This document shows positions 594-25,257 of a DNA stretch of 64,000 bases, piece by piece. The notes beneath the pieces were generated by a model. The model saw nothing but the letters and a program-made list of their open reading frames with translations. It was not told where the DNA came from and ran no database searches. The stretch is taken from positions 32,400 to 96,399 of the forward strand of contig JAUXUD010000004.1 in NCBI GenBank assembly GCA_030680835.1, in the 5' to 3' direction. The stretch comes from Bacteroidota bacterium (GTDB lineage: Bacteria > Bacteroidota > Bacteroidia > UKL13-3). Numbering within the stretch: position 1 is the stretch's first letter; each line of letters opens with the position of its first letter. The position numbers were made by a program, and so were the translations under genes.

Positions 594-1139
594 CTAATCC
601 ATCATCGTCAAATCCCGCCTCAATTCATCGGCAAGTTCTTTCCATTCTTCTTTACGTGCATCCCCCAATTCACGATCCCAATCTAAAAAGCGATGACCTA
701 TTTTTTCCAGTTCTGCCAGGTCGAAAATGCTTTCTGCCATTTGAAATACTTCTTCGTTTTCAACGGCTATATGATTCAGAAGTTCCTCTGTGTATTTTTC
801 AAGCTGATCATGCGCTTTTATATAATCATGTGCATTCAGACTTTGCTCTATGGATTTTATCATTTCGCGAAAATCTTCGTGGTTTTCAAACATTTCTTTG
901 ATGATGCCCTCTTCCAGCATTTCGTTGCGTTTATTCATCTCCGGGAACAGGATTACCTCTTCTTTATAATGATGATATTTATCGGCATAATTTCTGAAAA
1001 ACTGGATGAGTTTGCGGAGCTTGATATCGTATAAATCCGGGTCTCTGTTTATCAGATATTTCAGTTGTTTGGCCACATCTATGGCATTCACGATTACTTC
1101 GTGTTCATCGTATAAAATTTTCATAAATGGATTTGTCAT
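594..1139 (-). CDS. Hemerythrin-like (HHE cation-binding) domain protein
   Basis: 181 aa with spaced His/Glu/Asp pattern (YDEHEVI..., H..YKEEVILFPE..., HEDFREM...) typical of bacterial hemerythrin-like proteins. Last gene of the minus-strand array. Confidence 0.6.
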   Translation of the reverse strand: MTNPFMKILYDEHEVIVNAIDVAKQLKYLINRDPDLYDIKLRKLIQFFRNYADKYHHYKEEVILFPEMNKRNEMLEEGIIKEMFENHEDFREMIKSIEQSLNAHDYIKAHDQLEKYTEELLNHIAVENEEVFQMAESIFDLAELEKIGHRFLDWDRELGDARKEEWKELADELRRDLTMMD

Positions 1140-1146
1140 ATTGTTT

Positions 1147-2079
1147 TTATTTATTATTCAATTCTTCAAGACTTTGCTTTAAATATAAAATCATCATTTC
1201 TTTTCGGTAGGCTCTTGAATAGTAATCATTGTCTACAATTCTTGCTTTTTTAACCGCATCCTGAATGAGTGTTTCTGAGACATCCAGCATGCCTTCAACG
1301 ATTACGGGTTTTGGATCAATACCCCCTATAACTATTTTTATTTTCCCGTTTTGAACCAATGAAACGGCGGTGGTTAACGAGGTAAAATCAACCGCTTCAC
1401 GCGGACGTAATTTTTTGAACACTACTTTAAAGCTGTTGTCAAGAGGTAACATAATGTTTTTGATAATGGCCGTTTTTGAAAGATTTCTGGGGTTGATTCC
1501 ATCTCCGGTATAAATACTTTCCAATGGAATAATTTTTAAACTTTTTTCATCAATGATCTCAAGCTGTGCGTTCATGCTGATCAGTACCGGGGCAGTATCG
1601 GATACAAATTTTGAGAAACAGGCTTTGGTTCCACCGGTTGCGATGCATACTTCCCCATCGCATTTCAGACAGTATCCAACCGACTCACGCCACCAGGCAC
1701 TCTGGTTAAAATAGGTACATCTGTTTTCACATAAAATATTTCCGCCAAGGGTTGCTGTTTTTCTTAGGATGGGTGAAGCAACTTCATTCGCCGCTTTTAA
1801 TAATGCAGGAAATTGTTCTTTAATAATTTCATGTTTTTTAAGATCATCCAGACGAATTAATGATCCTATTTTCAGGAAATGAGTATCAGCATGCACTTCC
1901 TTTAGTATGGCGATACCGGAAAGGTCAATCAAACTTGCTGATTCATCATTTCCCTGAAACCTGTTTACCAGCACATCGGTTCCGCCTGCAATGTATTTAA
2001 AGCTTTGTACATGTTGCTTTGCCAGTGAAAGCGCTGCTTCAATGCTTGTTACCAGATGATATTTATTTTCAGCCATCAT
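1147..2079 (-). CDS. Xanthine dehydrogenase family FAD-binding medium subunit (CoxM/XdhB/HcrB-like) with a Cys-rich inserted loop
   Basis: AGGTDVLV FAD-binding motif. Cysteines at residues 117, 121, 137, 140, 145 and 154 fall within a ~40-residue stretch (LCENRCTYFNQSAWWRESVGYCLKCDGEVCIATGGTKAC) that ordinary CoxM/XdhB subunits lack. Start overlaps the upstream gene by 4 bp. Confidence 0.7.
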   Translation of the reverse strand: MMAENKYHLVTSIEAALSLAKQHVQSFKYIAGGTDVLVNRFQGNDESASLIDLSGIAILKEVHADTHFLKIGSLIRLDDLKKHEIIKEQFPALLKAANEVASPILRKTATLGGNILCENRCTYFNQSAWWRESVGYCLKCDGEVCIATGGTKACFSKFVSDTAPVLISMNAQLEIIDEKSLKIIPLESIYTGDGINPRNLSKTAIIKNIMLPLDNSFKVVFKKLRPREAVDFTSLTTAVSLVQNGKIKIVIGGIDPKPVIVEGMLDVSETLIQDAVKKARIVDNDYYSRAYRKEMMILYLKQSLEELNNK

Positions 2080-4847
2080 TTTTCTTTTAGCAGGTTTAAA
2101 ACATCTTCCGATTTAATGGGGAGTTTGGTAATCCGTATTCCAACCGCATCATAAATTGCATTTGCTATTGCAGGAATCACAGGATGCAAAGCGCCTTCTC
2201 CGCATTCTTTGGCTCCAAACGGACCTTCAGGATCGTTGGTTTCAATAATATTTGTGTGGAAATCCGGAGTGTCGAGAGAAGTTGGGATTTTGTAATCCAG
2301 GAAATTATTATTCATCAATAAGCCATTATAATAACGCATTTCCTCACTCATGGCCTGACCAATTCCCATGTGCCAGGAGCCTTCCAATTGTCCTTCTACT
2401 GCAAGCGGATTTAATGCTTTGCCACAATCATGCGCTCCCCATACATTGAGTATTTTTACATGTCCTGTTTGTTCGTTTACGTTCACTTCGGCTACACAGG
2501 CACCAAACGAATAGGAGGGACTTAAACCCGCGCCGGCACCTTTAAAATCACCACCCAGTTTAGGAGAAATATATTTTCCGCTCACAGAAACAGCACCGCG
2601 GTTTGCAGTTAAAATTTCAATGGCTTCCATCCAGCTCAGGTCTGTACTTTTATCATTGCTGAACACCCTTCCATCCAAAAAGTTGAGTTCATCTGTGGGT
2701 ACATTTTTTGATTTTGAAATGGCAGTGGCTATTTCAGCTCTCAAATTTTCAGCAGCATTTTTTGCAGCATTACCGGCCATAAAAGTTACCCGGCTCGAAT
2801 AGCTCCCCAGGTCAACCGGTGTGAGTAAGGTATCTGCTCCAATTACAAAAATATGATCCATGCCAATACCCAAAACTTCTGCCACAATTATGGCCAGCAT
2901 GGTATCACTGCCCTGTCCGATATCATTGGCACCTGATGTTACCAAAACCCGGCCGTCGAAATCTACTTTTAAATGTACAACTGATTGTGGCAATTCATTC
3001 CAGAAAATAGGCAAGGCACTGCCGCTGATAAAAAATCCACACCCTACGCCAAAACCATGTCCGGATGGCATTTTAGCATGTTTGTTTTTCCAGTTGGATT
3101 GCTCAGCAACTTTTTGAATTGACTCCCTGCTTCCGTTTGAAGTGATGCGGTATTGTCCAACCGTTAAGGTATTCGAATCCAGAAAATTTTTCATCCTGAG
3201 TTCAACCGGATCCATTTTTATCTTATGTGCAATATCATCAATTAAGGATTCAACAGCAAAGCGCGAATTCACCGCTCCATGCCCGCGCATGGCACCACAT
3301 TGAGGTTTGTTGGTATATACCCTATAGGTTCTGAACCCAAAATTATTTAATTTATAAGGAGCTTGCAGCAATACGCCGTTATAGTATGAAGTTACAACTC
3401 CAAAGCTTCCATAAGCACCTCCGTCAATGGCAATATCTGCATCCAGTACTTTTAGTATACCGTCATTATCGGCACCTAACTGAATGGTCATTTGAGAAGG
3501 ATGGCGACCATGATTGGTTAAAAAAACTTCTTCCCTCGACAAGCGTACATGTACCGGTTTGCCTGTTTTGCGTGCGATATACGCTACAATAATCTCATGC
3601 GGGAAGGGATCACCCTTGCCCCCAAAACCACCACCCACATGCGGCTTAATAACCCGTACCCGGTTTAAAGGAACTTCCATTGTTTTGGCAAGGGCTCTGT
3701 GCAAATAATGGGATACCTGCGTTGCGGAAATCATCGTTAAACCATTTTCATCCCAGAATGCCGAGGCGGAATGCGGTTCGGTAAATCCATGGTTCACACC
3801 TTCAAAAGTGAAGTCCATTTTACTCACTACCTCAGCATCTTTTAATCCTTGTTGCTGATCTCCAAAACGCAATTCAGCTTTTTTATGGACATTGTTATTT
3901 TGCTTGCCGTGTTCAGGATGAATTTTTTCATGTTCACCCACATCTTTTAATGAATCTTCAATAGTTAAATATTGCTTTATCGGATTGTATTTTATTTCAA
4001 TCAGCTTACAGGCCTTCAAAGCAATTGCTTCGGTATCGGCTGCCACGGCTGCCACAATTTCACCAATATACCGGGTCTTATGAATCGCTATGGCATTTTC
4101 ATCCTGGGAGATGGGAAGTACTCCGAAAGTAATGGGCAGTTCCTTACCGGTTGCAATATACCTTACCCCCTCTAATTTCATTGCCTTATCCGTATCTATC
4201 CACTCAATTTCTGCATGCGGAAAAATGCTTCTCACAAATTTAACCTGCAAGGCGCCTTTCAGTTTTATATCATCTGTATAATCAGCAATTCCCTGTACCT
4301 TTTTGCTTGCTTCAATATAAGGCCGGCTAACACCCACTGATTTGAGGTTTGCAGATTCCAAACTGTGAACTGTCAACTGTGAACCGTTAACTTCTTTTGC
4401 ATATTCAGCTACTGCCTCAATTATTTTCTTATAACCGGTACATCTGCATAAATTTCCGGATAGTCCTTCCTTAATCTGATCAATAGTAGGGTTGGAGTTA
4501 TGATTCACAAAATCCAGAGCCGTCATTACCATTCCCGGTGTACAAAATCCGCATTGAATGGCCCCTTTTTCTACAAATTTTTCCTGCAATTTATGGAGTG
4601 AACCATCCTGTGAAAGACCTTCAATGGTAGTTATATTGGCTGCATCAAATTTTAATGCAGGCGTAATACAACTGAGCACAGGTTCATTATTTACCAAAAC
4701 AGTACAAGCGCCACAACTGCCTTGTTCACATCCTATTTTTGTTCCGGTTAAACCTGCTTTTTCTCTGATAACGGTTGATAGCATTTCATGTTCTTCAACC
4801 AGGAGATGAAACTGTTTCCCATTTATATTTAGTTCGATTTGTTTCAT
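2076..4847 (-). CDS. Xanthine dehydrogenase family molybdoenzyme, fused [2Fe-2S] small subunit plus molybdopterin-binding large subunit (HcrC-HcrA-like / aldehyde oxidoreductase-like)
   Basis: N-terminus has both 2Fe-2S motifs (CEQGSCGACTV; CGFCTPGM; CRCTGY), followed by ~760 aa of large-subunit sequence (GGGFGGK). 923 aa. Confidence 0.75.
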   Translation of the reverse strand: MKQIELNINGKQFHLLVEEHEMLSTVIREKAGLTGTKIGCEQGSCGACTVLVNNEPVLSCITPALKFDAANITTIEGLSQDGSLHKLQEKFVEKGAIQCGFCTPGMVMTALDFVNHNSNPTIDQIKEGLSGNLCRCTGYKKIIEAVAEYAKEVNGSQLTVHSLESANLKSVGVSRPYIEASKKVQGIADYTDDIKLKGALQVKFVRSIFPHAEIEWIDTDKAMKLEGVRYIATGKELPITFGVLPISQDENAIAIHKTRYIGEIVAAVAADTEAIALKACKLIEIKYNPIKQYLTIEDSLKDVGEHEKIHPEHGKQNNNVHKKAELRFGDQQQGLKDAEVVSKMDFTFEGVNHGFTEPHSASAFWDENGLTMISATQVSHYLHRALAKTMEVPLNRVRVIKPHVGGGFGGKGDPFPHEIIVAYIARKTGKPVHVRLSREEVFLTNHGRHPSQMTIQLGADNDGILKVLDADIAIDGGAYGSFGVVTSYYNGVLLQAPYKLNNFGFRTYRVYTNKPQCGAMRGHGAVNSRFAVESLIDDIAHKIKMDPVELRMKNFLDSNTLTVGQYRITSNGSRESIQKVAEQSNWKNKHAKMPSGHGFGVGCGFFISGSALPIFWNELPQSVVHLKVDFDGRVLVTSGANDIGQGSDTMLAIIVAEVLGIGMDHIFVIGADTLLTPVDLGSYSSRVTFMAGNAAKNAAENLRAEIATAISKSKNVPTDELNFLDGRVFSNDKSTDLSWMEAIEILTANRGAVSVSGKYISPKLGGDFKGAGAGLSPSYSFGACVAEVNVNEQTGHVKILNVWGAHDCGKALNPLAVEGQLEGSWHMGIGQAMSEEMRYYNGLLMNNNFLDYKIPTSLDTPDFHTNIIETNDPEGPFGAKECGEGALHPVIPAIANAIYDAVGIRITKLPIKSEDVLNLLKEK
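2252..2449 (+). other. Six-frame-track ORFs of 60-100 aa that lie antisense within long well-supported CDSs (this span is one of about 80)
   Basis: Examples: plus-strand ORFs within 2076..4847 and 8039..10039, minus-strand ORFs within cusA (26346..30218) and the P-type ATPase (37325..39976), the three short ORFs inside hemB (52361..52555, 52406..52597, 52581..52766), and 497..901 and 693..1034 antisense to the hemerythrin gene. None has motifs or a credible start context, and the sense-strand genes have clear family signatures, so they are called artefacts. Confidence 0.9.
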
Positions 4848-5587
4848 AGATTCATATTTGCTCCAATGTTTTTACCGCCATCCACATACATTACCTGTCC
4901 GGTAATAAATTTTGTTTTTTCATTTGCCAGAAAGGAAACCACATTGGCAACATCTTCAGGTTTACCAATGGTTTTTGTAGGCTGAGCCTGTATGAGTTTT
5001 GTTAGCACGGATGCTTCCAGATTTTGGGTAAGCGGGGTGTCAATCAATCCCGGAGCCACTGCATTTACCCATACATTGTATTTTCCCAATTCCAATGCCA
5101 GCACCCTTGTTAATGCAACCACACCGGCTTTTGATGCCGAATAATTGGATTGCCCCGCATTGCCCAACCAGGCTCTGGAAGCGATATTAATAATGCGTCC
5201 GGAATTTTGTTCTTTCATTACCCTTGCGGCTTCCCGGCACATCATCCAGGTTCCTCTTAAATTAACTGCTATCACCGCATCAAATTCTTCTACACTCATT
5301 TTCCAGATCATTTTGTCTTTGATAATACCTGCATTATTCACAACCACATCAATGGAACCATTTATTTTTTTTGCCGCTGCAAATAATTTCTGAACCGAAA
5401 TCTCATCATTAATATTGGCTTCAATATAATTACTGAAATCACTTCCCATTTCTTTCTCCAGGGCAATGCCGGCTTCTTTATCAACATCAACCAATACTAC
5501 AAAAAAGCCATCGGCCTTTAACTTTGTGGCAATGGATTTGCCAATGCCCTTAGCTGCACCCGTTACTATCGAAACTTGCTTCTTCAT
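4844..5587 (-). CDS. Short-chain dehydrogenase/reductase (FabG/BadH-like, possible hydroxyacyl-CoA dehydrogenase)
   Basis: TGAAKGIGKSIA Rossmann motif, NNAG, and S...Y..ASK catalytic triad region. 247 aa. Confidence 0.7.
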   Translation of the reverse strand: MKKQVSIVTGAAKGIGKSIATKLKADGFFVVLVDVDKEAGIALEKEMGSDFSNYIEANINDEISVQKLFAAAKKINGSIDVVVNNAGIIKDKMIWKMSVEEFDAVIAVNLRGTWMMCREAARVMKEQNSGRIINIASRAWLGNAGQSNYSASKAGVVALTRVLALELGKYNVWVNAVAPGLIDTPLTQNLEASVLTKLIQAQPTKTIGKPEDVANVVSFLANEKTKFITGQVMYVDGGKNIGANMNL

Positions 5588-6374
5588 ATGTTTCAGTTTT
5601 TACCTTTTGTATAATTTCTTTTTGATTTGATACCGCAACAATTTTTGCCACAATACCCAGTGCAATTTCTTCCGGTCCGTTTTGACCAATATCAAACCCC
5701 ATGGGCATATCAACCCGGTCCAATTGTTCTTTACTGCAAATATTGTGTTCAAGGAATCTTTTTTTTGTGATCAATATTTTCCGCATGCTGCCAATCATTC
5801 CCAGGTATGCGGTATTTTGATTGATGCAGTAGGCCAGAATTTCACGGTCGTATTCATGCTGGTGTGTGCAGATAATCACATAGGTATCCGAATCAAACAA
5901 AAGTTTGGAAAAAGCTTCTTTATGGTTCAGGGGAAATTTTTGAATATCGGGGACATCTGTTTTGTCAAGCATTTTGCTGCGCTCATCAATCAGGATGGTT
6001 TTAAATTGTAATTTTTGTGCGTAGAAGGCCACATGGCTTCCAATATGTCCTGAACCAAATACGATTAATTGTTTTTGTGGTTTTTGGGGTTCAATAAAAA
6101 TTTTCATGGTACCTCCACAGCACATATTTTGTTTGAGTAAGGCATAGTCTATTAATTTAGATTCATTTTGCAGAATGAGTTTAATGGCATCGGCGATAAC
6201 CTGCGATTCTACGTTTCCTCCGCCAATGGTACCTGCAGAATCGCCATTTGCCCAGATCAGCATTTTTGCACCTGCTTTCAAAGGTGTTGAACCCGATGTT
6301 TCAACAACCGTACAGAGTGCAAGCTGCTCTCTTTTTTCCAGTGCACATTGCAAAATATTAAACAGGGATTGCAT
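5550..6374 (-). CDS. xdhC: XdhC/CoxI family molybdenum cofactor insertion chaperone
   Basis: N-terminal XdhC_CoxI domain and a C-terminal Rossmann-like domain (LIVFGSGHIGSHVA). Sits next to Mo-enzyme genes. Confidence 0.7.
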   Translation of the reverse strand: MQSLFNILQCALEKREQLALCTVVETSGSTPLKAGAKMLIWANGDSAGTIGGGNVESQVIADAIKLILQNESKLIDYALLKQNMCCGGTMKIFIEPQKPQKQLIVFGSGHIGSHVAFYAQKLQFKTILIDERSKMLDKTDVPDIQKFPLNHKEAFSKLLFDSDTYVIICTHQHEYDREILAYCINQNTAYLGMIGSMRKILITKKRFLEHNICSKEQLDRVDMPMGFDIGQNGPEEIALGIVAKIVAVSNQKEIIQKVKTETYEEASFDSNGCS

Positions 6375-6972
6375 GGTTAAAATATTTTATATAATCTTCT
6401 TCCGTGTTAATATTTGCCAATAGCTTTTCATCGTCAACCGGCACTTCTTCAAAGGAAAACTTTTCAAGAATCACTCTCAGGTCTTCAGAATCCGATTTTA
6501 TTTCTTTGATATGCTGAAGTATTTCTTTTGAAAGTAAAACGGGATGCCCTTTCTTACCCAAATAAACCGGAACCACATATTTACCAGGTTCAATTTTAGC
6601 TTTCATTTGATTGAGTAAACCGGATGTTGTAAATGGATTATCGATATTCTGTATGAAGACTGGAAAAGAATTGTCAATATTGTTTAAGCCCAGTTTGATA
6701 CTGTAAAAGCGGTCGGATACCGGTCTGATATTGCAAACAATTTTTATACTGTTTGCATTAAGATTTTCATGAATTTGTTTTTTCAATTGTTTTATTAATT
6801 GTGAATGGGTAACCAGAACAATATTTTCAATGCCGGCCTGGGTATATTGATAAACGAGATTTTGTATAAAGTTAAATTCGGGATCAAAGGACAACCAGGC
6901 TTTAGGCTGACCCAGTCTTGCGGATTTTCCGGCCATTAAAATGATTGCGCTATATTTATTTTTTACATCCAT
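6358..6972 (-). CDS. mocA: MobA-like NTP transferase, probable molybdenum cofactor cytidylyltransferase (MocA)
   Basis: ILMAGKSARLGQPKAWL nucleotidyltransferase motif. The track ORF 6358..7146 has a hydrophobic N-terminal run that overlaps the upstream gene. The internal Met at 6972 (MDVKNKY) abuts the upstream stop at 6977. Confidence 0.55.
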   Translation of the reverse strand: MDVKNKYSAIILMAGKSARLGQPKAWLSFDPEFNFIQNLVYQYTQAGIENIVLVTHSQLIKQLKKQIHENLNANSIKIVCNIRPVSDRFYSIKLGLNNIDNSFPVFIQNIDNPFTTSGLLNQMKAKIEPGKYVVPVYLGKKGHPVLLSKEILQHIKEIKSDSEDLRVILEKFSFEEVPVDDEKLLANINTEEDYIKYFNHAIPV

Positions 6973-6976
6973 ATGA

Positions 6977-8017
6977 TCAGGTACCCTTATGAGTAAGCGC
7001 GCTGTTGTGCAAGTAGTGGTTGAGAAATAAAACAGAACCAAATAGCAGAAAAGCACCGGTTTGATGCAATATTCCGATAAAGATAGGAACGCCGTACAGG
7101 ATATTGAAAACACCCAGTAAAAATTGAACTCCATAAATGAAGCCAATAAATTTTATCAGATTTTGCAGGGTAGGCGTGAGGTTGTATTTTAAGGATTTAA
7201 AATAAACAAGTACTATAGGGATTAAGACAAGCCATGCCAGGGTTCTATGGATAAACTGAACACCTGCCTGCCCTTCAATAAAATTTTTCCAAACGGGTTT
7301 CAGCAGGGTTACTTCATTTGCTATCCAATTTTCATTCATTTTTGGAAATGCCGGAAACATATAACCGGCTTTTAGCCCTGCAACAAAAGCGCCATAAACT
7401 ATTTGTATGATAACCATTCCCAACAGGATGCGGCTTATATTTTTCATTGAGGAATAATTATCCAATTCTTTTTTAGGATAGAACAAATCCAATGCATACC
7501 AAAATGAAAATCCAAATGCAGCAAAGGCGGTCAACAAATGCAGGGCAAGGCGGTAATGACTTACATGCGGATTTTTTTGCAGACCGCTTTTTACCATAAA
7601 CCATCCGATGAATCCCTGGAGTGAACCGATCAGCAAAAGGATTAACATTTTTTTTATAAAGCCTTCCGGAAATTTTTTTCGAATGAGAAAAAATAAAAAG
7701 GGAATCAGAAAAACCACCCCGATAAACCTGCCGATAAAGCGGTGAATATACTCCCACCAAAAAATATTTTTATAATCCTGGAGGGTGAAATCTTTATTGA
7801 TAATTTTGAATTCCGGTGATTGCCGGTATTTATCAAACTGCAGCATCCATTCCTGTTCATTTGAGGGAGGCGTTGAACCCGTAATGTTCCATTCAACCAT
7901 CGACAATCCCGAATTTGTTAAACGCGTAATGCCCCCAACAACTACCATCACGTAAATTAATATACAACCGCTTAGCAGCCAGTATATAATTAATCTATTT
8001 GATTTTTGTGTCTGCAT
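6977..8017 (-). CDS. ctaA: Heme A synthase homolog (COX15/CtaA family, type 2 without the Cys pair), polytopic membrane protein
   Basis: 346 aa with about 8 TM segments. It carries the EYIHR and HxxLA..H motifs in each half that are typical of CtaA. Confidence 0.55.
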   Translation of the reverse strand: MQTQKSNRLIIYWLLSGCILIYVMVVVGGITRLTNSGLSMVEWNITGSTPPSNEQEWMLQFDKYRQSPEFKIINKDFTLQDYKNIFWWEYIHRFIGRFIGVVFLIPFLFFLIRKKFPEGFIKKMLILLLIGSLQGFIGWFMVKSGLQKNPHVSHYRLALHLLTAFAAFGFSFWYALDLFYPKKELDNYSSMKNISRILLGMVIIQIVYGAFVAGLKAGYMFPAFPKMNENWIANEVTLLKPVWKNFIEGQAGVQFIHRTLAWLVLIPIVLVYFKSLKYNLTPTLQNLIKFIGFIYGVQFLLGVFNILYGVPIFIGILHQTGAFLLFGSVLFLNHYLHNSALTHKGT

Positions 8018-17905: not shown

Positions 17906-20035
17906 CTATATTTTTATCCTTGCATCCACGGCAAAAGCGCCATCTTCAAATGCCATCACCGGATTTAAATCCATTTCCTTTATTTGAGGAAAATCATTCA
18001 CCAGTTGAGATATGCGAAGTATCATTTCAATAACACTGTGTTTATCTAGCGCCGCTTCCCCTCTTGCGCCATCTAATAATTTTGCAGCTTTTATTGAAGA
18101 TAACATTTCGTTTGCTTCAACCCGCGTTACCGGAGATAATTTGAAAACCACATCTTTTAATACTTCAATATAAATTCCTCCCATACCAAACATTACAAGC
18201 GGTTCCAGATCTTTTTGAGCACTTACTCCAATAACAAGTTCCTTACCACCGGGAAGAAATTTTTGAACCAAAAACCGGAGGTCCTCCTCTATAAAATCTT
18301 CCTTCATTTTTTCAACGGCATACAAAACTTCATTGTCGTTTTTCAGATTTATGGCTACCCCGCCCAAATCGCTTTTATGCACAAGAGATTTCGATTCAAC
18401 TTTTACAACAACGGGATATCCAATTTCTTTCGCAGCTTTTACAACATCTGCCATAGAGTGGGCCAAACGCCAATCGGCAATGGGAATTCCATAAGCTGAA
18501 AGTAAGGTATATACTTGTTCGCTGCTAAGAAATTCTCCGGTAGATTTTACATTATTTAAAATGGAATCGGCTTTTACTTTATCTATATCATTAAAATGTT
18601 TGGGTTCACCAATATGCCGGTTTTGAACCAAATGGTACCTGTATAATGCGCCAAGCGCTTTGGCAGCAGTGGTAGGGAAGCTGTAACAAGGTACACCGCC
18701 ATCTTTCAGGATTTTGGCAGTCTCCTGAAAACGTTCCAGACTCAGGTTGGTCATGAAATTACAAACGATGGGTTTTTTGTGTTGTTGATTTACTTCAACA
18801 ATACTTCTTGCAACCTCATTGGTGTCGGTAAACGGAGCCGTAACAAAATTGATAAAAACCGAGTCAATCTGTTCTTCATTCATCATCACATCCAGCGCAC
18901 TTCTGAAATGAATTCCGCCTCCGGTTGCAACTACATCAACAGGATTTCCAATGCTTGCTTCGGGCAATAATGTTTGTTGTAAGGTTTGTATTGCTTTTTC
19001 AGAAAGAGCCGGAATCTGCATTCCTGCATGAACCAGTTCATCGGTTGCAATTACAGCAGGTCCGCCTGTATTGGTGATGATGCCCACACGGTTTCCCTTA
19101 GGGATGGGTTGTGTTGAAAAAGCTTTGGCAGCCTGACACATTTCTTCTTCATTGGTGAAAGAAAGGATCCCTGTTTTCTCAAAAATTAATTCAGTTGCAA
19201 TATCAACACCAGCAAGAGAACCTGTATGGGAAGCTGCTGCTTTAGCGCCTTCAGCAGTCCTGCCCGATTTCATGGCAAGTATTGGCTTTTTGCGTGCAAC
19301 CACTTTGGCCACTTTCATAAATTCTCCGGGATCATGAAATCCTTCGGTATAAAGTATAATGGCTTTGGTTGCCTCATCGTTACCATAATAATTTAATACC
19401 TCCGAAATAGAAATATCACATGCATTTCCATTTGAAGCATAGTAACGCATTCCAATTTCCAGGTCGAATAAACTTTGCATGATAAAGGCACCTACACCTC
19501 CACTTAAAGCTACAATTGAGATGGCACCAGGCTCCGGAAAAGTAAATGTAAAATCACAGTATGCTTTATAATCCGGATCGGTATTGATGATACCCTGACA
19601 GTTTGGACCAAATACCCGGATTCCATATTCTTTTGCCTTGTTGAGAAAAGCAGTTTGCAATGCAATGCCTTCTTCCCCCATTTCATTAAATCCGGCTGAA
19701 TTAATGATTACTGATTTAATTCCTTTTTTGCCACAATCTTCAATAATCTGAGGAACAAATTTTGAAGGAATAATGATATGTGCCAAATCAATATCATCAG
19801 GCACATCAAAAATAGTTTGATAGGCCTTGATATCCCTTATGCTGGGTTCTTTAGGATTGATGGGATAAATTTTCCCGGTATAACCATAATGTACCAGGTT
19901 TTTAATAATTACATTTCCGATGGATAATTCTTTTGAGGATGCACCAATTATAGCAATCGATTTTGGCTTAAATAAAGTATCCAGTTCGTGAGAAATGTCA
20001 CTTTCAATCAATACTGATTCTTCCTTATAATTCAT
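17906..20035 (-). CDS. Acyl-CoA synthetase (NDP/ADP-forming), fused alpha+beta domains (CoA-binding, CoA-ligase, ATP-grasp)
   Basis: 709 aa. N-terminal CoA-binding Rossmann region (SIAIIGASSKELSIGNVIIKNL), a succinyl-CoA-synthetase-like flavodoxin domain and a C-terminal ATP-grasp domain. Confidence 0.75.
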   Translation of the reverse strand: MNYKEESVLIESDISHELDTLFKPKSIAIIGASSKELSIGNVIIKNLVHYGYTGKIYPINPKEPSIRDIKAYQTIFDVPDDIDLAHIIIPSKFVPQIIEDCGKKGIKSVIINSAGFNEMGEEGIALQTAFLNKAKEYGIRVFGPNCQGIINTDPDYKAYCDFTFTFPEPGAISIVALSGGVGAFIMQSLFDLEIGMRYYASNGNACDISISEVLNYYGNDEATKAIILYTEGFHDPGEFMKVAKVVARKKPILAMKSGRTAEGAKAAASHTGSLAGVDIATELIFEKTGILSFTNEEEMCQAAKAFSTQPIPKGNRVGIITNTGGPAVIATDELVHAGMQIPALSEKAIQTLQQTLLPEASIGNPVDVVATGGGIHFRSALDVMMNEEQIDSVFINFVTAPFTDTNEVARSIVEVNQQHKKPIVCNFMTNLSLERFQETAKILKDGGVPCYSFPTTAAKALGALYRYHLVQNRHIGEPKHFNDIDKVKADSILNNVKSTGEFLSSEQVYTLLSAYGIPIADWRLAHSMADVVKAAKEIGYPVVVKVESKSLVHKSDLGGVAINLKNDNEVLYAVEKMKEDFIEEDLRFLVQKFLPGGKELVIGVSAQKDLEPLVMFGMGGIYIEVLKDVVFKLSPVTRVEANEMLSSIKAAKLLDGARGEAALDKHSVIEMILRISQLVNDFPQIKEMDLNPVMAFEDGAFAVDARIKI

Positions 20036-20064
20036 AACTCATTTTTTTATTCATATTTTTTTTT

Positions 20065-20152
20065 AAACACATAGGCACATAGATTCACATAGGTTTCACA
20101 TAGTAAAATACCCTATGTGAAACCTATGTTTTCCTATTGTGCCTATGTGTTT
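20065..20152. repeat. 88-bp imperfect palindrome built from CACATAG / CTATGTG units, flanked by ~15 bp direct repeats (aatt(t)cataactcat)
   Basis: aaacacataggcacatag..tcacataggtttcacatag|taaaatac|cctatgtgaaacctatgtt..ctattgtgcctatgtgttt. The direct repeats are at 20028..20042 and 20153..20168. Confidence 0.7.
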
Positions 20153-20184
20153 AATTTCATAACTCATACCTCATAACATAATAT

Positions 20185-21021
20185 TTACACCATCACTGCC
20201 TGTTTTTCTTTCAGTCTGATATGCCTGAATCCTCCCCATAAGGCTGCGCCCAATGCACCTGCGTATATGGCATCCGGGTGGGTTTTAATCACATATTTTT
20301 TCCCGGTTTCCAACAATTGTTCTTCTATTGCCTGGATCATTCCGGTATTCAGCGACATGCCTCCTGTTATGATAATCGGTGATTCCGCCTTTAAGGAACT
20401 CAGCAGTTTTATAATCCGGTTTGCAATGGAAAGATGAATGCCTTTGATAATATTGGGAGTTTTGATACCTCTTGAAACCATGTTAATCACATCGGTTTCA
20501 GCCAGTACTGCGCAAATTCCTGATGACAATTCAGGGGCTTCTGCCTGCAACGAAACGGTTCCTACTTCTTCAATCGACAGTCCAAGATAACGCGAAATAT
20601 TTTCAACAAATTGTCCGGATCCCGAAGCACATTGTCCGGTCATTTTATAATCCTGCACGCGTGCATCTGTTGATATTTTGATGGCCCGTACGTACAAAGC
20701 ACCCATATCCACTACTGTTACGGCATCCGGGAAGAAAAAATTGGCCCCTTTTGCATGGGTTGTCATCCCATAAAAATGTCCGCGTTTGCGCTTCACCAGA
20801 TCGCCTTCACCGGTTGATGCCAGATAAGCAATTTCTTCATATTGAAGATTGTTTCTTTTCAGCATGCTTTGAATTAATTCTTCTGCAACCACTGAAGGAT
20901 TCCGCTTTCTGATTTTTTCAGTATGCTTGTCAACGATCTTCGGATTGTTGGAATAATCTACCAAAATAAGTTTGATAAAATTTGATCCCACATCAATCCC
21001 CATTGTATAAAAGTTTTCCAT
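20185..21021 (-). CDS. bcrD: Benzoyl-CoA reductase-like small ATPase subunit (BcrD/BadG family activase-type ASKHA ATPase)
   Basis: 278 aa. MGIDVGSNFIKLILVD... and TGQCASGSGQFVE (Cys pair for the bridging [4Fe-4S] cluster). Fourth gene of the C-B-A-D order. Confidence 0.65.
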   Translation of the reverse strand: MENFYTMGIDVGSNFIKLILVDYSNNPKIVDKHTEKIRKRNPSVVAEELIQSMLKRNNLQYEEIAYLASTGEGDLVKRKRGHFYGMTTHAKGANFFFPDAVTVVDMGALYVRAIKISTDARVQDYKMTGQCASGSGQFVENISRYLGLSIEEVGTVSLQAEAPELSSGICAVLAETDVINMVSRGIKTPNIIKGIHLSIANRIIKLLSSLKAESPIIITGGMSLNTGMIQAIEEQLLETGKKYVIKTHPDAIYAGALGAALWGGFRHIRLKEKQAVMV

Positions 21022-21103
21022 AATTTTTTAATTCTTACTTCTTAATTCTATTTCATATTGTACATTGTTCTCGACTTAGCTCGGACTGACATGCGGTATA
21101 TCT

Positions 21104-21166
21104 TACATTGTACATTGTACATCGTAATTCGTACATCGTACATCGTAAATCGTACATTGTACATCA
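21104..21166. repeat. Tandem array of 9 copies of the 7-bp unit TACATYG (TACATTG/TACATCG/TAAATCG/TAATTCG), with an additional solo copy at 21061
   Basis: Read directly: tacattg tacattg tacatcg taattcg tacatcg tacatcg taaatcg tacattg tacatca. The array runs into the bcrA-like stop codon. Confidence 0.8.
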
Positions 21167-22579
21167 AGCCATTTCTTTTGTTTTCTTCGCATTGGGTAAA
21201 TCGGCATTTATATTTCTTCTGGCAAACATGGCACCTCCCAGAGCTCCCATAAAAATGGAATCTGTGTGAATATTTATTTTGATATGTTCGCCATAATTTT
21301 CTTTTACCAATTGGGTCAGGTATTTAATAACTGCCTGATTTCTGGCAACACCTCCGGTAAAAGTAAATTCGTTAAACACGCCACCCGAGCGGGCTATCAG
21401 CGACATGGCCCGCATGATGATTGCCTTATGCAAACCTCCCAGTATGTCTTCGCGCCGTTCTCCCAGATTGGTTAATTCACGCAATTCGGCACCTGCAAAA
21501 ACGGTACAGGTAGAGCAAATGGTCACTTCTTTTTCAGCCTGCATGGCCATGGGTCCGAGTTCATTTAATGAAATGCTCAGTTCATCTGCAATATATCCAA
21601 GATATCGTCCGCAACCTGCGGCACAACGGTCGTTCATCTGAAAACTGGTTACCAAACCATACTTATCAACCTGAATTGCTTTTGTGTCTTGTCCACCAAT
21701 ATCCAAAACCGTTCTGGTTTCAGGGAAAATGGCATGGGCTCCAAAGGCATGACATAAAATTTCGGAACGGATACATTCCTGAGGGAAGGGCAGGAGCGCA
21801 CGCCCATAACCAGTACCCGTCATATTGGTAATATTGAATTCAAGTTGGGCTATCTTATGAATATGCTCCCGTAACGAATCACTCACATGATAAAATTTCC
21901 CTTTCAGTAAATTAATTTCAGCATCAAAATTTACGCTTTCATCATCCATGTTTTCAGGAAGGTTTTCATATTTTTCCCTTAACACTTCCATGGCTTTTTG
22001 AACCAGTTCAAAAAAATTGAATTCAACTGCCTGGTTTTCGGCCGGACTGATACTCTTGTCCCAAATGGTCATGAGGGGTTCAAATAAGGAGTTGTCGAGT
22101 TTATTTACTTCTTCATTATACAACTCCGAAACGATGTCTCTGAAAAACTGATTTTTTGAACCCAGGTCGCCAAAAATATAGGCATGTTTTATTTTGGGCT
22201 TAATCACTTTTCTGATGTTTCTCAGGTTCTCCAGCATGAGTTCTCTTTTTTCGCCTGTTAAGTAACTGTTGCAGGTTTTTAATAATTCCTCACCCAGTTT
22301 ATCAATCCGGACCTTGAATTGTTCATATTGAAATACACTTTCCAGATCGGAAATATATTTTCTGTACTCAGGATTTAATTCCATATCTTTTTCAAGAATT
22401 TTCTTGAGTATGGAAAAGCGCGCATTGTAAATGGCTTCTTCCCGGGCGATATCAGCTGCAACAGAATAATTGGCACGGGTGTTGGTAATTCCCCTTCCGA
22501 TAATTTCATCCTGATCGTTTATGATTACCGCCTTTGATGTTGTGGAGCCAAGGTCTACTCCTAAATAATATTTATTCAT
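21164..22579 (-). CDS. bcrA: Benzoyl-CoA reductase-like large ATPase subunit (BcrA/BadF family)
   Basis: 471 aa. YYLGVDLGSTTSKAVII... N-terminus and NDRCAAGCGRYLG cluster-ligand motif. It is larger than a simple HgdC activase and sits in third position. Confidence 0.65.
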   Translation of the reverse strand: MNKYYLGVDLGSTTSKAVIINDQDEIIGRGITNTRANYSVAADIAREEAIYNARFSILKKILEKDMELNPEYRKYISDLESVFQYEQFKVRIDKLGEELLKTCNSYLTGEKRELMLENLRNIRKVIKPKIKHAYIFGDLGSKNQFFRDIVSELYNEEVNKLDNSLFEPLMTIWDKSISPAENQAVEFNFFELVQKAMEVLREKYENLPENMDDESVNFDAEINLLKGKFYHVSDSLREHIHKIAQLEFNITNMTGTGYGRALLPFPQECIRSEILCHAFGAHAIFPETRTVLDIGGQDTKAIQVDKYGLVTSFQMNDRCAAGCGRYLGYIADELSISLNELGPMAMQAEKEVTICSTCTVFAGAELRELTNLGERREDILGGLHKAIIMRAMSLIARSGGVFNEFTFTGGVARNQAVIKYLTQLVKENYGEHIKINIHTDSIFMGALGGAMFARRNINADLPNAKKTKEMA

Positions 22580-22646
22580 TTCTTTAAATAATTTCGTTTA
22601 CATGAATTCAATGTTTTCAATTAAATATTGTGTAAATACAATGTGA

Positions 22647-22665
22647 GGGCAGATGCAATCTGCCC
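22647..22665. promoter_or_regulatory. Intercistronic GC-rich stem-loop (gggcagat-gca-atctgccc) between the bcrB-like and bcrA-like genes
   Basis: 8-bp perfect stem with a 3-nt loop, in an AT-rich 119-bp spacer. Confidence 0.5.
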
Positions 22666-22698
22666 CTACCAGTTGTATCATATAAATTAGTTTTCATG

Positions 22699-24003
22699 TT
22701 ATATTTCAGCTTCTACTTGTTTCATAATTATTTTTCTTTGACCCAACATCTGGAAATAGGATTCCAAACGGTTTTTGATATTGGCATATGAGAAATATCT
22801 GGGATCCACCAAATCCGATTCGATAAATCCCACAGGCACTCCCGAGCGTTGTTCAATTTCGCGCATAATCATCAATTGCCCTGCTGAGAAAGAGTTACAG
22901 CTTTTAATGGAATTAATCAAAAATCCATCAGCCTTATATTCCTCCACGTATTTTTCAAGCAAATCAACCCGTTGCGGTAGGTTTAAATTGGTATACACGC
23001 CCATGCAATATTTTGCCAGACTTTCGAGCGGTGCATTCGGATCATGCCGGAAACCCTGATCGTAAACACCCCCTACTTTGGTATAGGAAGAGGCAACGAT
23101 CACAGCACCCATATCATAAAATATTTTCCAGAATTCACGGAAGTTGGTCCAGTTGGGCGGACCTTCAACAACCAGTCTGAATTTCTCTTCCTTTAGCTCT
23201 CCTTCAGGAGTTATTGGGCCTAAACCCAGTCGCATTCTTTCCTGCACTTCTTTCCATAATTCTGTATAGTATTCAACGGCTTCTTCTGTTCCCCTGAAGG
23301 CAGTGAAAATCGGACCGATATAATATACCCCGGCAAAGTATGCATCAATGGGAGATGGAACATGTTTGGCAGACTCCAGAACTTTAACCAATAAATCTTC
23401 TGCTTTTGCAGAATTTACCAGCATTTTAGAAAGCCGTTCCAGATCGAATTTTTTACCGGATACCATTTCCATTTTTGGAATCACTTCCTCATTCATTTGC
23501 TTCACCATATAATCAACCTGGTCCTGCGAAATTTTTCCATCTTCCTGATAAGGTGTATGCAGCATGGCCACAGGCACTCCGGGGTATAAGCGTTCCAGAT
23601 TCTCGAACCACTTTAAAAAGGTAAAACAACCTGTATAACTGAGCAACAATAAATCGGGGGGTGGAAGCTTTTCTCCTGTTGGACCTATATTGCCATTTAA
23701 CATCATACCGATATCGCATTTCACATAGGTACATACATCTTCCGAATAGCCAATTTTTTCGGCGTCTCTGATATAATCCGCAGATTTTTTTCGCATGCCC
23801 GACTGAAGCGCATTGATTTCGGGATATACCGGTAGCATATCAAAGGAAAGAATCAGCTCGGTGAGGTTACCGGGAACAAACGTATAAACCACTTTTTTAC
23901 CCAATTCCGTGGCGGTACTTAATTCCTTAAATTGTTTGGCCAGCATCTCTTTTTGAATGAGCATGCTGTTTTCTTTGATTGCTTCGTGTTGTTCTTTACT
24001 CAT
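22699..24003 (-). CDS. bcrB: Benzoyl-CoA reductase / 2-hydroxyacyl-CoA dehydratase family large catalytic subunit (BcrB/BadE/HgdA-like)
   Basis: 434 aa. The family-typical N-terminal block (VVYTFVPGNLTELILSFDMLPVYPE) and conserved Cys are present. Second gene of the operon. Confidence 0.65.
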   Translation of the reverse strand: MSKEQHEAIKENSMLIQKEMLAKQFKELSTATELGKKVVYTFVPGNLTELILSFDMLPVYPEINALQSGMRKKSADYIRDAEKIGYSEDVCTYVKCDIGMMLNGNIGPTGEKLPPPDLLLLSYTGCFTFLKWFENLERLYPGVPVAMLHTPYQEDGKISQDQVDYMVKQMNEEVIPKMEMVSGKKFDLERLSKMLVNSAKAEDLLVKVLESAKHVPSPIDAYFAGVYYIGPIFTAFRGTEEAVEYYTELWKEVQERMRLGLGPITPEGELKEEKFRLVVEGPPNWTNFREFWKIFYDMGAVIVASSYTKVGGVYDQGFRHDPNAPLESLAKYCMGVYTNLNLPQRVDLLEKYVEEYKADGFLINSIKSCNSFSAGQLMIMREIEQRSGVPVGFIESDLVDPRYFSYANIKNRLESYFQMLGQRKIIMKQVEAEI

Positions 24004-24047
24004 AATAATATTTTTATCATTTTAAACTTTGCTTTCATGTCAACATA

Positions 24048-24067
24048 GGTCAGGTCGCGACCTGACC
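24048..24067. promoter_or_regulatory. 20-bp perfect palindrome ggtcaggtcgcgacctgacc between the bcrC-like and bcrB-like genes
   Basis: Exact self-complement, in a 90-bp AT-rich spacer. Confidence 0.55.
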
Positions 24068-24093
24068 CTACAATATTCCCATTTCCTTCTTTA

Positions 24094-25257
24094 CTACGCC
24101 CAGAGTTTTATTGAATCAGAAAAAGTTCCTGCCTGTTCTTTAATCACTTTAAACTGCCCGGTGTTTTCATGGAACTGGAAATTGATATGGGGAATTCCGG
24201 CCAGGTCGCATTCTTTTTGCATTTCAGGGCGGTCGAGGAGGGCAGGGTCACAAAAACTTGCTGCACAGAAAATAATTCCATCGGCATCTCTTTCCTTAGA
24301 AAGTTTTACCAAACGTTTCCCTTTGGGATTTCCGACATCATAATATGCAGATGAGAAGGTGCTCTGGTTAATGTATGCATCCGCCAATGCTTCCAATGGG
24401 TTGTCTGTTGTTGCATTGATATCACCCTGTATCCAGCGCGATCCCAGCATAAAATCATCTTCTACGATATAGCAGCCTGCCAGTTCAATTGATTTGATCA
24501 AACCTATCGGAGGCTGTTCGCAGAAGGAACCGCTTACTACAATCCGGATATTATCCATGGGTTCACCTCTCTCATTTTGAAGATGTGAGACTACCTGCTC
24601 CAGAATTTCATTGTGTTCCTCAACCGGAATTACTTGCCCGGCTCTGAGAATATAATAGGTTTCCACTGCAGTAAGTTTCCAGGGTGCAGCTTGTCTGATT
24701 TCGTATATTTTCTCGATCAGGAATCTGTTTTTATTATACAATCCGATGGAATGATTGATGGCTTCAGAGGTAATTTTTATGCCATTAATGGCAAACATAT
24801 CATCTATTACTTTTCCAATTTCCTGCTTATAAAAAGTTCCCCCAATATTTGGATCAAAGTTTTGGGGATAATCAAAATAGCGCTGAAATTTTCCTTTTTT
24901 AGAGAGTTTAAACATTCCGGATAAATTGCGCACGCAGTCGCAAATGGCAGGGAACAGGAACCCATCAAACCCATCGAGATTATTATCCAGTGCCATTTCA
25001 ATAATGCCCCGTGGCAGGTGACATATATAAGATTGGTAATAAGCATCTCCTTTAATAATCTGTTTGCGGTCGCCCGAACCCATGATACCCACTGAAATGC
25101 CATTGGCAGCATGTATAATCTCGCGAGGCACATAAATTGGCAGATAACCTACGATAATCCGCTTTGGGTCCTCCGACTTCCATTGTTTGGCTCTTGAAAA
25201 GTTTAAGTCAAATGCCAGTAACTCGCATTCCTGCAGTATTTCTTCTAAGACTTTCAT
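24094..25257 (-). CDS. bcrC: Benzoyl-CoA reductase / 2-hydroxyacyl-CoA dehydratase family subunit (BcrC/BadD/HgdB-like)
   Basis: 387 aa. IIVGYLPIYVPREIIHAANG N-terminal block typical of the B/D-component family. First gene of the operon, with an AT-rich putative promoter region upstream (25258..25454). Confidence 0.65.
   Translation of the reverse strand: MKVLEEILQECELLAFDLNFSRAKQWKSEDPKRIIVGYLPIYVPREIIHAANGISVGIMGSGDRKQIIKGDAYYQSYICHLPRGIIEMALDNNLDGFDGFLFPAICDCVRNLSGMFKLSKKGKFQRYFDYPQNFDPNIGGTFYKQEIGKVIDDMFAINGIKITSEAINHSIGLYNKNRFLIEKIYEIRQAAPWKLTAVETYYILRAGQVIPVEEHNEILEQVVSHLQNERGEPMDNIRIVVSGSFCEQPPIGLIKSIELAGCYIVEDDFMLGSRWIQGDINATTDNPLEALADAYINQSTFSSAYYDVGNPKGKRLVKLSKERDADGIIFCAASFCDPALLDRPEMQKECDLAGIPHINFQFHENTGQFKVIKEQAGTFSDSIKLWA

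Follow-up and report, generated by a model that had tools for sequence, protein, structure and literature searches.

A predicted class I benzoyl-CoA pathway cluster with an embedded ligase/HGD-D/PanE-activase module in Bacteroidota

Class I benzoyl-CoA reductases (BCRs), as encoded by the bcrCBAD-dch-had-oah cluster of Thauera aromatica and by badDEFG of Rhodopseudomonas palustris, combine two HGD-D subunits with two actin-fold ATPases, one of which is long. To our knowledge, these enzymes have been studied biochemically only in Proteobacteria, and metagenome surveys often fail to separate them from 2-hydroxyacyl-CoA dehydratases. In this study, we analyzed a stretch of 64,000 nucleotides (here called the window) from Bacteroidota bacterium (UKL13-3), contig JAUXUD010000004.1 (GCA_030680835.1), positions 32,400 to 96,399 of the forward strand. 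The window carries a block of 20 successive minus-strand open reading frames (ORFs), running from 25257 down to 594 with gaps of 0 to 149 bp or small overlaps, which is very likely a chromosomal, operon-like cluster for the degradation of aromatic acids under anaerobic conditions via benzoyl-CoA. Judged from its sequence, the assignment of the block as a class I benzoyl-CoA pathway cluster of Bacteroidota is well supported; the predicted core chemistry is ordinary, and what is new is the host group and an embedded radical-enzyme module.

Gene families were assigned by Pfam and NCBIfam profile scores, the latter read against the curated equivalog cut-offs. A clear family was found for 19 of the 20 genes, the exception being an ORF of 154 amino acids (aa); E-values ran from 1e-14 for a hemerythrin-domain protein, the weakest case, to 1e-241, and the assignments far exceed chance. 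The ORF listing contained no plus-strand gene inside 594..25257. The reductase itself is encoded by four genes at 25257..20185, in the order C-B-A-D that is also found in Thauera:

24094..25257, minus strand: bcrC, class I BCR subunit C, 387 aa, HGD-D fold (TIGR02263, 460.2 bits, cut-off 421.15, end-to-end)
22699..24003, minus strand: bcrB, catalytic subunit B, 434 aa (TIGR02260, 700.1 bits, cut-off 486.55)
21164..22579, minus strand: bcrA, long ATPase subunit A, 471 aa (TIGR02259 as top match, 439.6 bits, below the cut-off of 578; Pfam BcrAD_BadFG, E 1e-68)
20185..21021, minus strand: bcrD, short ATPase subunit D, 278 aa (TIGR02261 as top match, 301.9 bits, just below the cut-off of 312.85, full length)

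Two HGD-D proteins and two BcrAD_BadFG proteins were thus recognized by Pfam. Subunits B and C exceeded their equivalog cut-offs, and residues 4 to 453 of BcrA aligned to positions 3 to 432 of the 432 positions of TIGR02259, i.e., over its full length. The corresponding dehydratase models scored far lower (HadB model against BcrB, 193 bits versus a cut-off of 750; HadC model against BcrC, 160 bits versus 700). BcrC of related loci was 68 to 90% identical. Among protein structures, BcrB matched MbdO of 3-methylbenzoyl-CoA reductase (9g87, 207 bits) better than HadB (154 bits) and BzdO (83 bits), which argues for a reductase of the Thauera/BCR type rather than the Bzd type. The cysteines in its motifs ..DVCTYV.., ..TGCFTF.. 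and ..KSCNSF.. line up with the cluster cysteines of MbdO and HadB. BzdO binds its catalytic [4Fe-4S] cluster through Cys95, Cys128 and Cys380, and the cluster's coordination in HadB is the same (PMC11971306). Two further residues of BzdO, His131 and Glu65 (PMC11971306), failed as discriminators between reductase and dehydratase: the His site is occupied by Phe in both the BcrB of the window and MbdO, and the Glu belongs to a PEN motif that is kept throughout the superfamily, including HadB and a third HGD-D protein of the block. From its similarity to characterized enzymes, BcrCBAD would carry out the ATP-dependent reduction of benzoyl-CoA to cyclohexa-1,5-diene-1-carbonyl-CoA.

Genes for the subsequent steps are found in the same block, which contains homologs of the Thauera-type Dch, Had and Oah:

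12996..14261, minus strand: thiolase, 421 aa (TIGR01930, 392 bits, cut-off 241), position kept in related loci
11931..12995, minus strand: had, 6-hydroxycyclohex-1-ene-1-carbonyl-CoA dehydrogenase, 354 aa (TIGR03201, 466.7 bits, cut-off 338.65)
10822..11922, minus strand: oah (bamA), ring-opening 6-oxocyclohex-1-ene-1-carbonyl-CoA hydratase, 366 aa (TIGR03200, 583.6 bits, cut-off 464.45)
10046..10819, minus strand: dch-like gene for a cyclohexa-1,5-dienecarbonyl-CoA hydratase, 257 aa (TIGR03189 as top match, 223.4 bits, below the cut-off of 292.5; next family, 150 bits)
8039..10039, minus strand: 3-hydroxyacyl-CoA dehydrogenase/enoyl-CoA hydratase (HADH/ECH) fusion, 666 aa (Pfam 3HCDH_N, 3HCDH and ECH_1), at the same position in the related loci L088 and L091

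By the same similarities, the Dch-like protein is predicted to hydrate the diene, Had to oxidize the product and Oah to open the ring to 3-hydroxypimelyl-CoA, whose chain would then be shortened by the dehydrogenase-hydratase fusion and the thiolase. We regard the presence of this core class I BCR pathway as highly probable on the basis of the profile scores.

The distal part of the block encodes an enzyme of the xanthine dehydrogenase family together with its maturation factors:

6358..6976 (listed ORF, 6358..7146), minus strand: MocA-like molybdenum cofactor cytidylyltransferase (Pfam NTP_transf_3; TIGR03310, 84 bits versus 186)
5550..6374, minus strand: XdhC-family maturation factor of Mo enzymes (Pfam XdhC_CoxI and XdhC_C)
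4844..5587, minus strand: oxidoreductase of the short-chain dehydrogenase/reductase (SDR) family (Pfam adh_short_C2, E 1.5e-62; no specific NCBIfam family above cut-off)
2076..4847, minus strand: fusion of a gamma ([2Fe-2S]) and an alpha (Mo) subunit, 4-hydroxybenzoyl-CoA-reductase-like, 923 aa (TIGR03194, 803 bits, below the cut-off of 994.55)
1147..2079, minus strand: FAD-binding beta subunit, 310 aa, with an HcrB-type Cys-rich insertion (TIGR03195, 202 bits versus 404.55)

Its closest described counterparts are HcrCAB of Thauera aromatica (PDB 1rm6) and HbaBCD. The fusion protein aligned to 1rm6_A with 581 bits over residues 170 to 921; TIGR03194 was its best NCBIfam family (803 bits), and the next one, XdhA, scored 544 bits. 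The best structural match of the beta subunit was HcrB (1rm6_B, 142 bits), and all Cys positions of the insertion (C..C..C..C..C) align with it; in HcrB, these cysteines bind an extra [4Fe-4S] cluster. By these comparisons, the Mo enzyme is much closer to 4-hydroxybenzoyl-CoA reductase than to other members of the xanthine dehydrogenase family, and XdhC and MocA are encoded alongside. It differs from HcrCAB and HbaBCD in the fusion of gamma and alpha, in its scores below the cut-offs and in the SDR gene that lies between xdhC and the fusion gene. This SDR gene always accompanies the Hcr-like genes, and the order MocA-XdhC-SDR-HcrCA is kept in related loci. The top family of the XdhC protein was NF045664, an XdhC-family aldehyde oxidoreductase maturation factor (193 bits versus 350), ahead of TIGR02964 (137 versus 162). 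The listed mocA ORF begins at a TTG within the preceding gene, ctaA; the Pfam domain begins only at residue 67, and the product in L088 has 204 aa and is encoded directly after ctaA. The true start probably lies about 60 codons downstream of the listed one, just past ctaA. Once matured by XdhC and MocA, the Mo/FAD/Fe-S enzyme would strip the para-hydroxyl group from 4-hydroxybenzoyl-CoA and so feed the same route.

A preliminary description of this DNA had reported 20 co-directional genes at 594..25257, which the ORF listing bears out, all on the minus strand. Its claims of a four-gene class I BCR, of a fused 3-hydroxyacyl-CoA dehydrogenase-crotonase and a thiolase, and of XdhC and MocA maturation genes agree with the profile matches given above. 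It had also stated what would speak against it, namely reductase genes falling with dehydratases and crotonases falling with ordinary beta-oxidation enzymes; the low HadB and HadC scores and the passing of Had and Oah show neither. Two claims held in part: within the proposed Dch/Had/Oah set, Had and Oah passed their cut-offs and Dch did not, and the three parts of the Mo enzyme are present but in two genes rather than three. The genes that it described are there, and five were left out: those for an ADP-forming acyl-CoA synthetase, the third HGD-D protein, the 154-aa ORF, a PanE/ApbA-activase fusion and the SDR.

A scan with BcrB, over one representative genome per species, found 400 stretches coding for a close relative of it; identities and labels refer to the best 80 of these. 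In these 80, BcrB was 80 to 94% identical, and almost all were labelled as metagenome-assembled genomes (MAGs) of Bacteroidota or Ignavibacteria. More than 120 close MAG sequences were among the homologue matches. The MAG names, our sole source on habitat, point to groundwater, boreal and stratified lakes, peat, activated sludge and anammox reactors. On the sister contig L088 the gene order is identical to that of the window, ctaA included. In L091 it reads hemerythrin-bcrCBAD-ligase-HGD-D-PanE/activase-thiolase-had-oah-dch-HADH/ECH-mocA-xdhC-SDR and matches the window apart from ctaA and the position of the hemerythrin gene. In 26 of the 45 loci with sufficient upstream DNA, the Hcr module is placed upstream of bcrC in divergent orientation, not downstream. 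The NCBI pipeline already labels these proteins as benzoyl-CoA reductase subunits; a literature search returned no paper on a Bacteroidota class I BCR cluster, and surveys of MAGs mention bcr genes in other phyla. In 11 related loci (e.g., L058, 12763..13905, and the Ignavibacteria-labelled L044), a saccharopine-dehydrogenase-like gene (~380 aa) that is absent from the window lies between bcrA and bcrD. Eight related loci (e.g., L032, 2243..5767) have, close to the cluster, a gene (~1170 aa) that resembles those for pyruvate:ferredoxin oxidoreductases; its product is a candidate source of reduced ferredoxin for the reductase.

The most distinctive part of the block is a four-part module between bcrD and the thiolase gene, which the preliminary description had missed:

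17906..20035, minus strand: ADP-forming acyl-CoA synthetase, alpha-beta fused, 709 aa (Pfam CoA_binding_2, Succ_CoA_lig and ATP-grasp_5)
16654..17874, minus strand: single HGD-D protein, HadB(alpha)-like, 406 aa (HadB model, 221 bits; BcrB model, 162 bits)
16161..16625, minus strand: stand-alone C-terminal domain of an AMP-forming acyl-CoA ligase, 154 aa (weak match to Pfam AMP-binding_C_3)
14264..16111, minus strand: fusion of a PanE/ApbA-type 2-oxoacid reductase (residues 1 to ~315) and an activase ATPase (~350 to 600) (Pfam ApbA, ApbA_C and BcrAD_BadFG)

The ADP-forming ligase is the sole complete CoA-activating enzyme of the block. Its best structural match was an ADP-forming 4-hydroxybutyrate-CoA ligase (8wzu, 482 bits). 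Among the 41 related loci that were informative for the presence of genes, 13 carry an ADP-forming ligase after bcrD and the remainder an AMP-forming ligase of ~580 aa, which does not belong to the benzoate-CoA ligase family. The 154-aa ORF aligns to residues ~420 to 570 of this ~580-aa ligase, which follows bcrD in about 40 related loci. The remnant is intact (134 to 176 aa, 37 to 54% identity) in 17 related loci, of which 16 have the ADP-forming ligase; this suggests that it is still under selection. In the lineage of the window, the ADP-forming ligase appears to have taken the place of the AMP-forming one, of which only the C-terminal ~150 residues survive.

The HGD-D protein of the module aligned over its full length, including the three Cys ligands, with the structure of HadB (171 bits) and more weakly with MbdO (132 bits); C79, C118 and C346 are near-invariant. 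Of the 41 informative loci, 39 keep its gene and 38 that of the PanE-activase fusion, close to the conservation of the reductase itself. The PanE-activase fusion exceeded the cut-offs for both of its halves (TIGR00241, 174 bits versus 125.4; TIGR00745, 157 versus 141). GxGxxG, K-x3-N and TEIDY motifs could be read in the PanE part, and DLGS and CAAGTG in the activase part, whose best structural match was HadI (4eht). The closest structures of the PanE domain were 2ew2, 8wl1 and 3wfi, the last of which we take to be a D-mandelate dehydrogenase. According to the literature, D-mandelate dehydrogenase is grouped with the ketopantoate reductases, a family that includes alpha-keto-acid reductases.

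Three independent lines tie the parts of the predicted module together. In other phyla, the PanE (ApbA) domain is fused to the HGD-D protein (P0122 and P0148); genes for the parts are adjacent in L084 (ApbA/PanE, HGD-D, activase and AMP-forming ligase) and in L087 (HGD-D, activase and ADP-forming ligase [ACD]); and the ligase of L084 is 41% identical to the Bacteroidota one. A single HGD-D gene was present in every context examined, i.e., in the window, L081, L083, L084, L086, L087 and L090 to L094. In a neighbor-joining tree, the HGD-D protein of the window groups with those of marine loci (L090 and L092 to L094), apart from the AMP-ligase variant. Within Bacteroidota, the module tracks benzoyl-CoA reductases. 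It stands alone in L083 and L086 and beside an unrelated Mo enzyme in L081, so it is not intrinsically specific for aromatic compounds. In L081, from a Myxococcota MAG, the stretch 10001..18157 encodes a 728-aa PanE-HGD-D fusion and then an activase, an enzyme of the xanthine dehydrogenase family in three genes, XdhC and MocA; BCR genes are absent from the vicinity. We dropped this locus as a link between the module and the Hcr-like enzyme; its Mo subunit shares 39% identity with that of the window, the Cys insertion is missing from its FAD subunit, and by these comparisons the orthology of the two Mo enzymes is not clear.

The gene content of the module recalls the clostridial systems HadBC-HadI-LdhA-HadA, FldABC-FldI-FldH and HgdAB-HgdC, in which a 2-oxoacid reductase, CoA activation, a [4Fe-4S] HGD-D dehydratase and an ATP-dependent activator act together. 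We found the same set of traits (a three-Cys site, activator motifs, an accompanying 2-oxoacid reductase and a CoA-activating enzyme), drawn partly from other families: the reductase belongs to the PanE/ketopantoate-reductase family and is fused to the activator, whereas the clostridial enzymes are D-2-hydroxyacid dehydrogenases, and a ligase (ADP- or AMP-forming) takes the place of the clostridial CoA transferase. In addition, a lone HGD-D gene stands where the clostridial systems have an alpha/beta pair, and its HadB score (221 bits) does not reach the cut-off of 750. All characterized 2-hydroxyacyl-CoA dehydratases that we know of are alpha/beta heterodimers. A homomeric HGD-D-fold protein with a single activase-type ATPase is found in the system of the double-cubane cluster protein (DCCP/DCCP-R, 6eno/7yyl), but the relation is weak (NF040772, 54 bits; 7yyl_C, 22 bits) and the module protein has three conserved Cys, not the at least six needed for an [8Fe-9S] cluster. 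The HGD-D protein is a putative catalytic subunit of a homomeric enzyme of the 2-hydroxyacyl-CoA dehydratase type, proposed to be a homodimer in which each subunit holds one [4Fe-4S] cluster.

The marine Bacteroidota MAGs L092 to L094 show the order HcrCA-SDR-thiolase-bcrCBAD-ACD-HGD-D-PanE-activase, with the same gamma-alpha fusion (940 aa). At 13018..21203 in each of them, and at 13015..21203 in L090, the genes that follow downstream encode a caprolactamase/acetophenone-carboxylase-like HyuAB, a TrpB-like pyridoxal phosphate enzyme, RidA, an acyl-CoA dehydrogenase and a two-subunit B12-dependent acyl-CoA mutase. The anaerobic indoleacetate pathway includes hydantoinase and Mo-enzyme steps. 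By analogy, the marine extension together with the Mo enzyme resembles this pathway (iaa) of Aromatoleum, for which the mutase and dehydrogenase steps are documented (PMC8360864). L090 also carries, at 1..5220 and directly upstream of its ACD/HGD-D/PanE/activase set, HdrA-, MvhD/VhuD-, NuoE-, NuoF- and NuoG-N-terminal-like genes. Their order and sizes resemble what we take to be the arrangement of bamEFGHI of class II benzoyl-CoA reductase and would be compatible with it; BamB would lie outside the DNA examined. L090 had been considered as a BCR-free context for the module, which was given up once these upstream genes were recognized.

It is reasonably likely that the module works like a 2-hydroxyacyl-CoA dehydratase system and yields an enoyl-CoA from a 2-oxo or 2-hydroxy acid. 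The (R)-2-hydroxy acid formed by reduction of a 2-oxo acid would be converted to its CoA thioester, from which ATP-primed ketyl-radical chemistry would remove water to give the enoyl-CoA. Since AMP- and ADP-forming ligases interchange at one site and the AMP type works only toward the thioester, their shared function should be the activation of an acid, and the closest structural relative of the ADP-forming ligase activates a hydroxy acid. The module holds the only complete CoA-activating enzyme and is followed by beta-oxidation genes, which makes aryl-pyruvate or aryl-lactate the favoured substrate, an assignment that we put forward only tentatively. Phenylpyruvate or phenyllactate and their 4-hydroxy forms would be converted to cinnamoyl- or coumaroyl-CoA and further to benzoyl- or 4-hydroxybenzoyl-CoA, and with such substrates the Hcr-like enzyme would also gain a substrate.

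Several observations weigh against this picture of the pathway and its module. BcrA and BcrD, though top matches, lie under their equivalog cut-offs, as do Dch (223.4 versus 292.5) and all parts of the Hcr-like enzyme (alpha, 803 versus 994.55; beta, 202 versus 404.55; gamma, 166 versus 257.8). The block (594..25257) lacks genes for a ferredoxin, a 2-oxoglutarate:ferredoxin oxidoreductase, a benzoate-CoA ligase, a glutaryl-CoA dehydrogenase, a transporter and a regulator; no ferredoxin-sized ORF fits into its gaps of 28 to 149 bp, and neither a 2-oxoglutarate- nor a pyruvate:ferredoxin oxidoreductase gene was found in it. Thauera, by comparison, encodes a cognate ferredoxin and a ferredoxin-reducing enzyme with its reductase. 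In its Bacteroidota host, in the absence of these genes and of an AMP-forming benzoate-CoA ligase of the BadA/BclA type, in the lower scores of BcrA and BcrD and in the presence of hemerythrin and the ligase/HGD-D/PanE-activase module, the block differs from the clusters of Thauera and Rhodopseudomonas; we know of no proteobacterial bcr cluster with either of the latter two. The HGD-D protein of the module is encoded by one gene rather than the alpha/beta pair expected of a dehydratase, the module also occurs away from BCR genes (L081, L083, L084, L086 and L087), and the aryl-lactate assignment would follow from cluster logic and nothing else. No cultured carrier was found either, the named close relatives all being MAGs.

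That all six proteins with these folds share the HGD-D and BcrAD_BadFG superfamilies, and that a genuine dehydratase-like module adjoins the reductase genes, could suggest that a 2-hydroxyacyl-CoA dehydratase with two activators is the product of the four bcr-like genes and that the block serves the fermentation of amino acids or fatty acids. The profile scores contradict this (HadB and HadC models, 193 and 160 bits, versus 700 and 460 bits for BcrB and BcrC), an ATPase pair that is heterodimeric and includes a long A subunit is typical of BCRs, and Had and Oah, which are specific to the dearomatized ring, score above their cut-offs, leaving this explanation extremely unlikely. A preference of the BcrCBAD-like enzyme for a substituted or other aryl-CoA (hydroxy-, amino-, methyl- or halo-benzoyl-CoA), with benzoyl-CoA as a side substrate, would be in line with the lower scores of BcrA and BcrD and with the flank of the marine loci, whose hydantoinase-like protein, B12-dependent mutase and acyl-CoA dehydrogenase resemble a pathway from indoleacetate that ends in 2-aminobenzoyl-CoA. 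Characterized relatives such as MBR are promiscuous (reference 42 of PMC11704145). We consider this preference improbable; the substrate-binding BcrB scores 700 versus 487 on the benzoyl-CoA equivalog and only 207 to MbdO, and the cut-offs are also exceeded by Had and Oah, enzymes that act on the products of the unsubstituted ring. Acquisition of the block as a recent island from Proteobacteria, the source of the biochemically characterized class I BCRs, is very unlikely. The preliminary description had raised an unusual host and possible horizontal acquisition and proposed a comparison of base composition, which revealed no deviation: the GC content of the block is 0.398 and that of the flanking genes 0.396, GC at third codon positions is 0.362 versus 0.355, the codon-usage distance was reached by 14.6% of random gene partitions, and the tetranucleotide profile is also like that of the flanks. 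There was no integrase, transposase or tRNA boundary among the ORFs examined, and a plasmid search with BcrB gave at best dehydratase-family genes of 23 to 27% identity, hence no evidence of a plasmid vehicle. The gene order is kept across many Bacteroidota lineages, with lineage-specific rearrangements, and is shared by many Bacteroidota and Ignavibacteria relatives. The unusually high conservation of BcrB (80 to 94%) across MAGs labelled as different orders and as Ignavibacteria could reflect strong constraint or lateral spread within this group, but the cluster is not a recent import; it is an old trait, common in a large section of the phylum that is uncultured.

For the module, the main rival is that it handles a C5 dicarboxylate, converting 2-oxoglutarate via 2-hydroxyglutarate and 2-hydroxyglutaryl-CoA to glutaconyl-CoA, which would join the lower benzoyl-CoA pathway, or that it runs in reverse, from glutaconyl-CoA (itself from glutaryl-CoA) to 2-oxoglutarate and on to a ferredoxin-reducing oxidoreductase that supplies the BCR. 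Glutaryl-CoA is expected from the encoded ring cleavage and beta-oxidation, yet the block lacks a glutaryl-CoA dehydrogenase. An acyl-CoA dehydrogenase gene does lie near the module in L090/L092 and L084, and the second-best family of the one in L090 is a non-decarboxylating glutaryl-CoA dehydrogenase (277 bits), but it scores higher as an acryloyl-CoA reductase (304 bits); in the window, neither an acyl-CoA dehydrogenase nor a glutaconyl-CoA decarboxylase was found. The reverse direction gains from the established reversibility of ADP-forming ligases and from the pyruvate:ferredoxin oxidoreductase-like gene near the cluster in the eight related loci. Most clusters, though, carry the AMP-forming ligase, which is unable to run in the ATP-yielding way, so that reversal would fit the minority variant only. 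On balance, a C5 role appears unlikely, and we retain the conversion of an aromatic 2-oxo or 2-hydroxy acid as the favoured reading.

The cluster constitutes a full and self-consistent predicted pathway (reductase, Dch/Had/Oah, Hcr-like enzyme and beta-oxidation) in Bacteroidota and indicates a sizeable uncultured group with the potential to degrade aromatic compounds anaerobically, for which the BcrB and Oah/BamA sequences of Bacteroidota could serve as specific gene markers. The module would represent an uncharacterized member of the family of ATP-dependent radical enzymes; its parts are linked by gene fusions, and it recurs beside BCR genes. Its study could uncover either a new route that feeds benzoyl-CoA or a previously unseen connection between the lower pathway and the supply of reducing power. 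It is conceivable, although doubtful, that uncultured Bacteroidota and Ignavibacteria share an undescribed anaerobic route in which aromatic 2-oxo and 2-hydroxy acids derived from Phe and Tyr are reduced and thioesterified and then pass through a novel homomeric, ATP-primed ketyl-radical dehydratase (with its activator fused to a PanE-type reductase), beta-oxidation and the class I BCR of the same operon. If this were true, the consumption of aromatic carbon by this phylum in oxygen-poor freshwater, groundwater, peat and wastewater systems would be substantial and would so far have been overlooked.

The remaining features of the block and its upstream border are as follows:

25258..25454, no strand: intergenic region upstream of bcrC, AT-rich, presumed promoter, shared with a divergent gene of 126 aa
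6977..8017, minus strand: ctaA, heme A synthase (Pfam COX15-CtaA, E 6e-102)
594..1139, minus strand: hemerythrin-domain protein, 181 aa, last gene of the block (Pfam Hemerythrin, E 6e-14)

Hemerythrin homologs occur in 33 related loci, often as the first gene immediately 5' of bcrC, and are a conserved member of the cluster; the protein may sense or buffer oxygen on behalf of the oxygen-labile enzymes. The ctaA gene follows the HADH/ECH gene by 21 bp. It is present in the sister contig L088, which is 97% identical, and absent at that position in L091, and by this comparison is a lineage-specific passenger or insertion outside the conserved cluster. Its presence in an otherwise anaerobic cluster implies an aa3-type oxidase and a facultative lifestyle.

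Divergently upstream of bcrC, the plus strand encodes a heavy-metal efflux set (25975..33371) with an HMA-domain protein, a 1290-aa pump of the AcrB/CusA type, an outer-membrane factor and a CusB/HlyD-type adaptor with a heavy-metal-binding domain; this flank is also found in L088. A near-complete operon for heme biosynthesis (48306..57432, plus strand) comprises GluTR, porphobilinogen deaminase, HemD, URO-D, ALAD and ferrochelatase, a class-III aminotransferase (probably HemL), an oxygen-independent HemN-type radical SAM enzyme and a UPF0093 protein, taken as HemJ-like. A search of the window against Rfam matched no RNA family. The host had been described as a Bacteroidota type with Por secretion, and in agreement with this, four proteins of the window carry a Por_Secre_tail domain, the C-terminal sorting domain of type IX secretion (41059..41832, 45037..46515, 57586..58944 and 59060..62569). 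A small cytochrome c (42879..43334) is encoded beside an ORF with a PKD domain.

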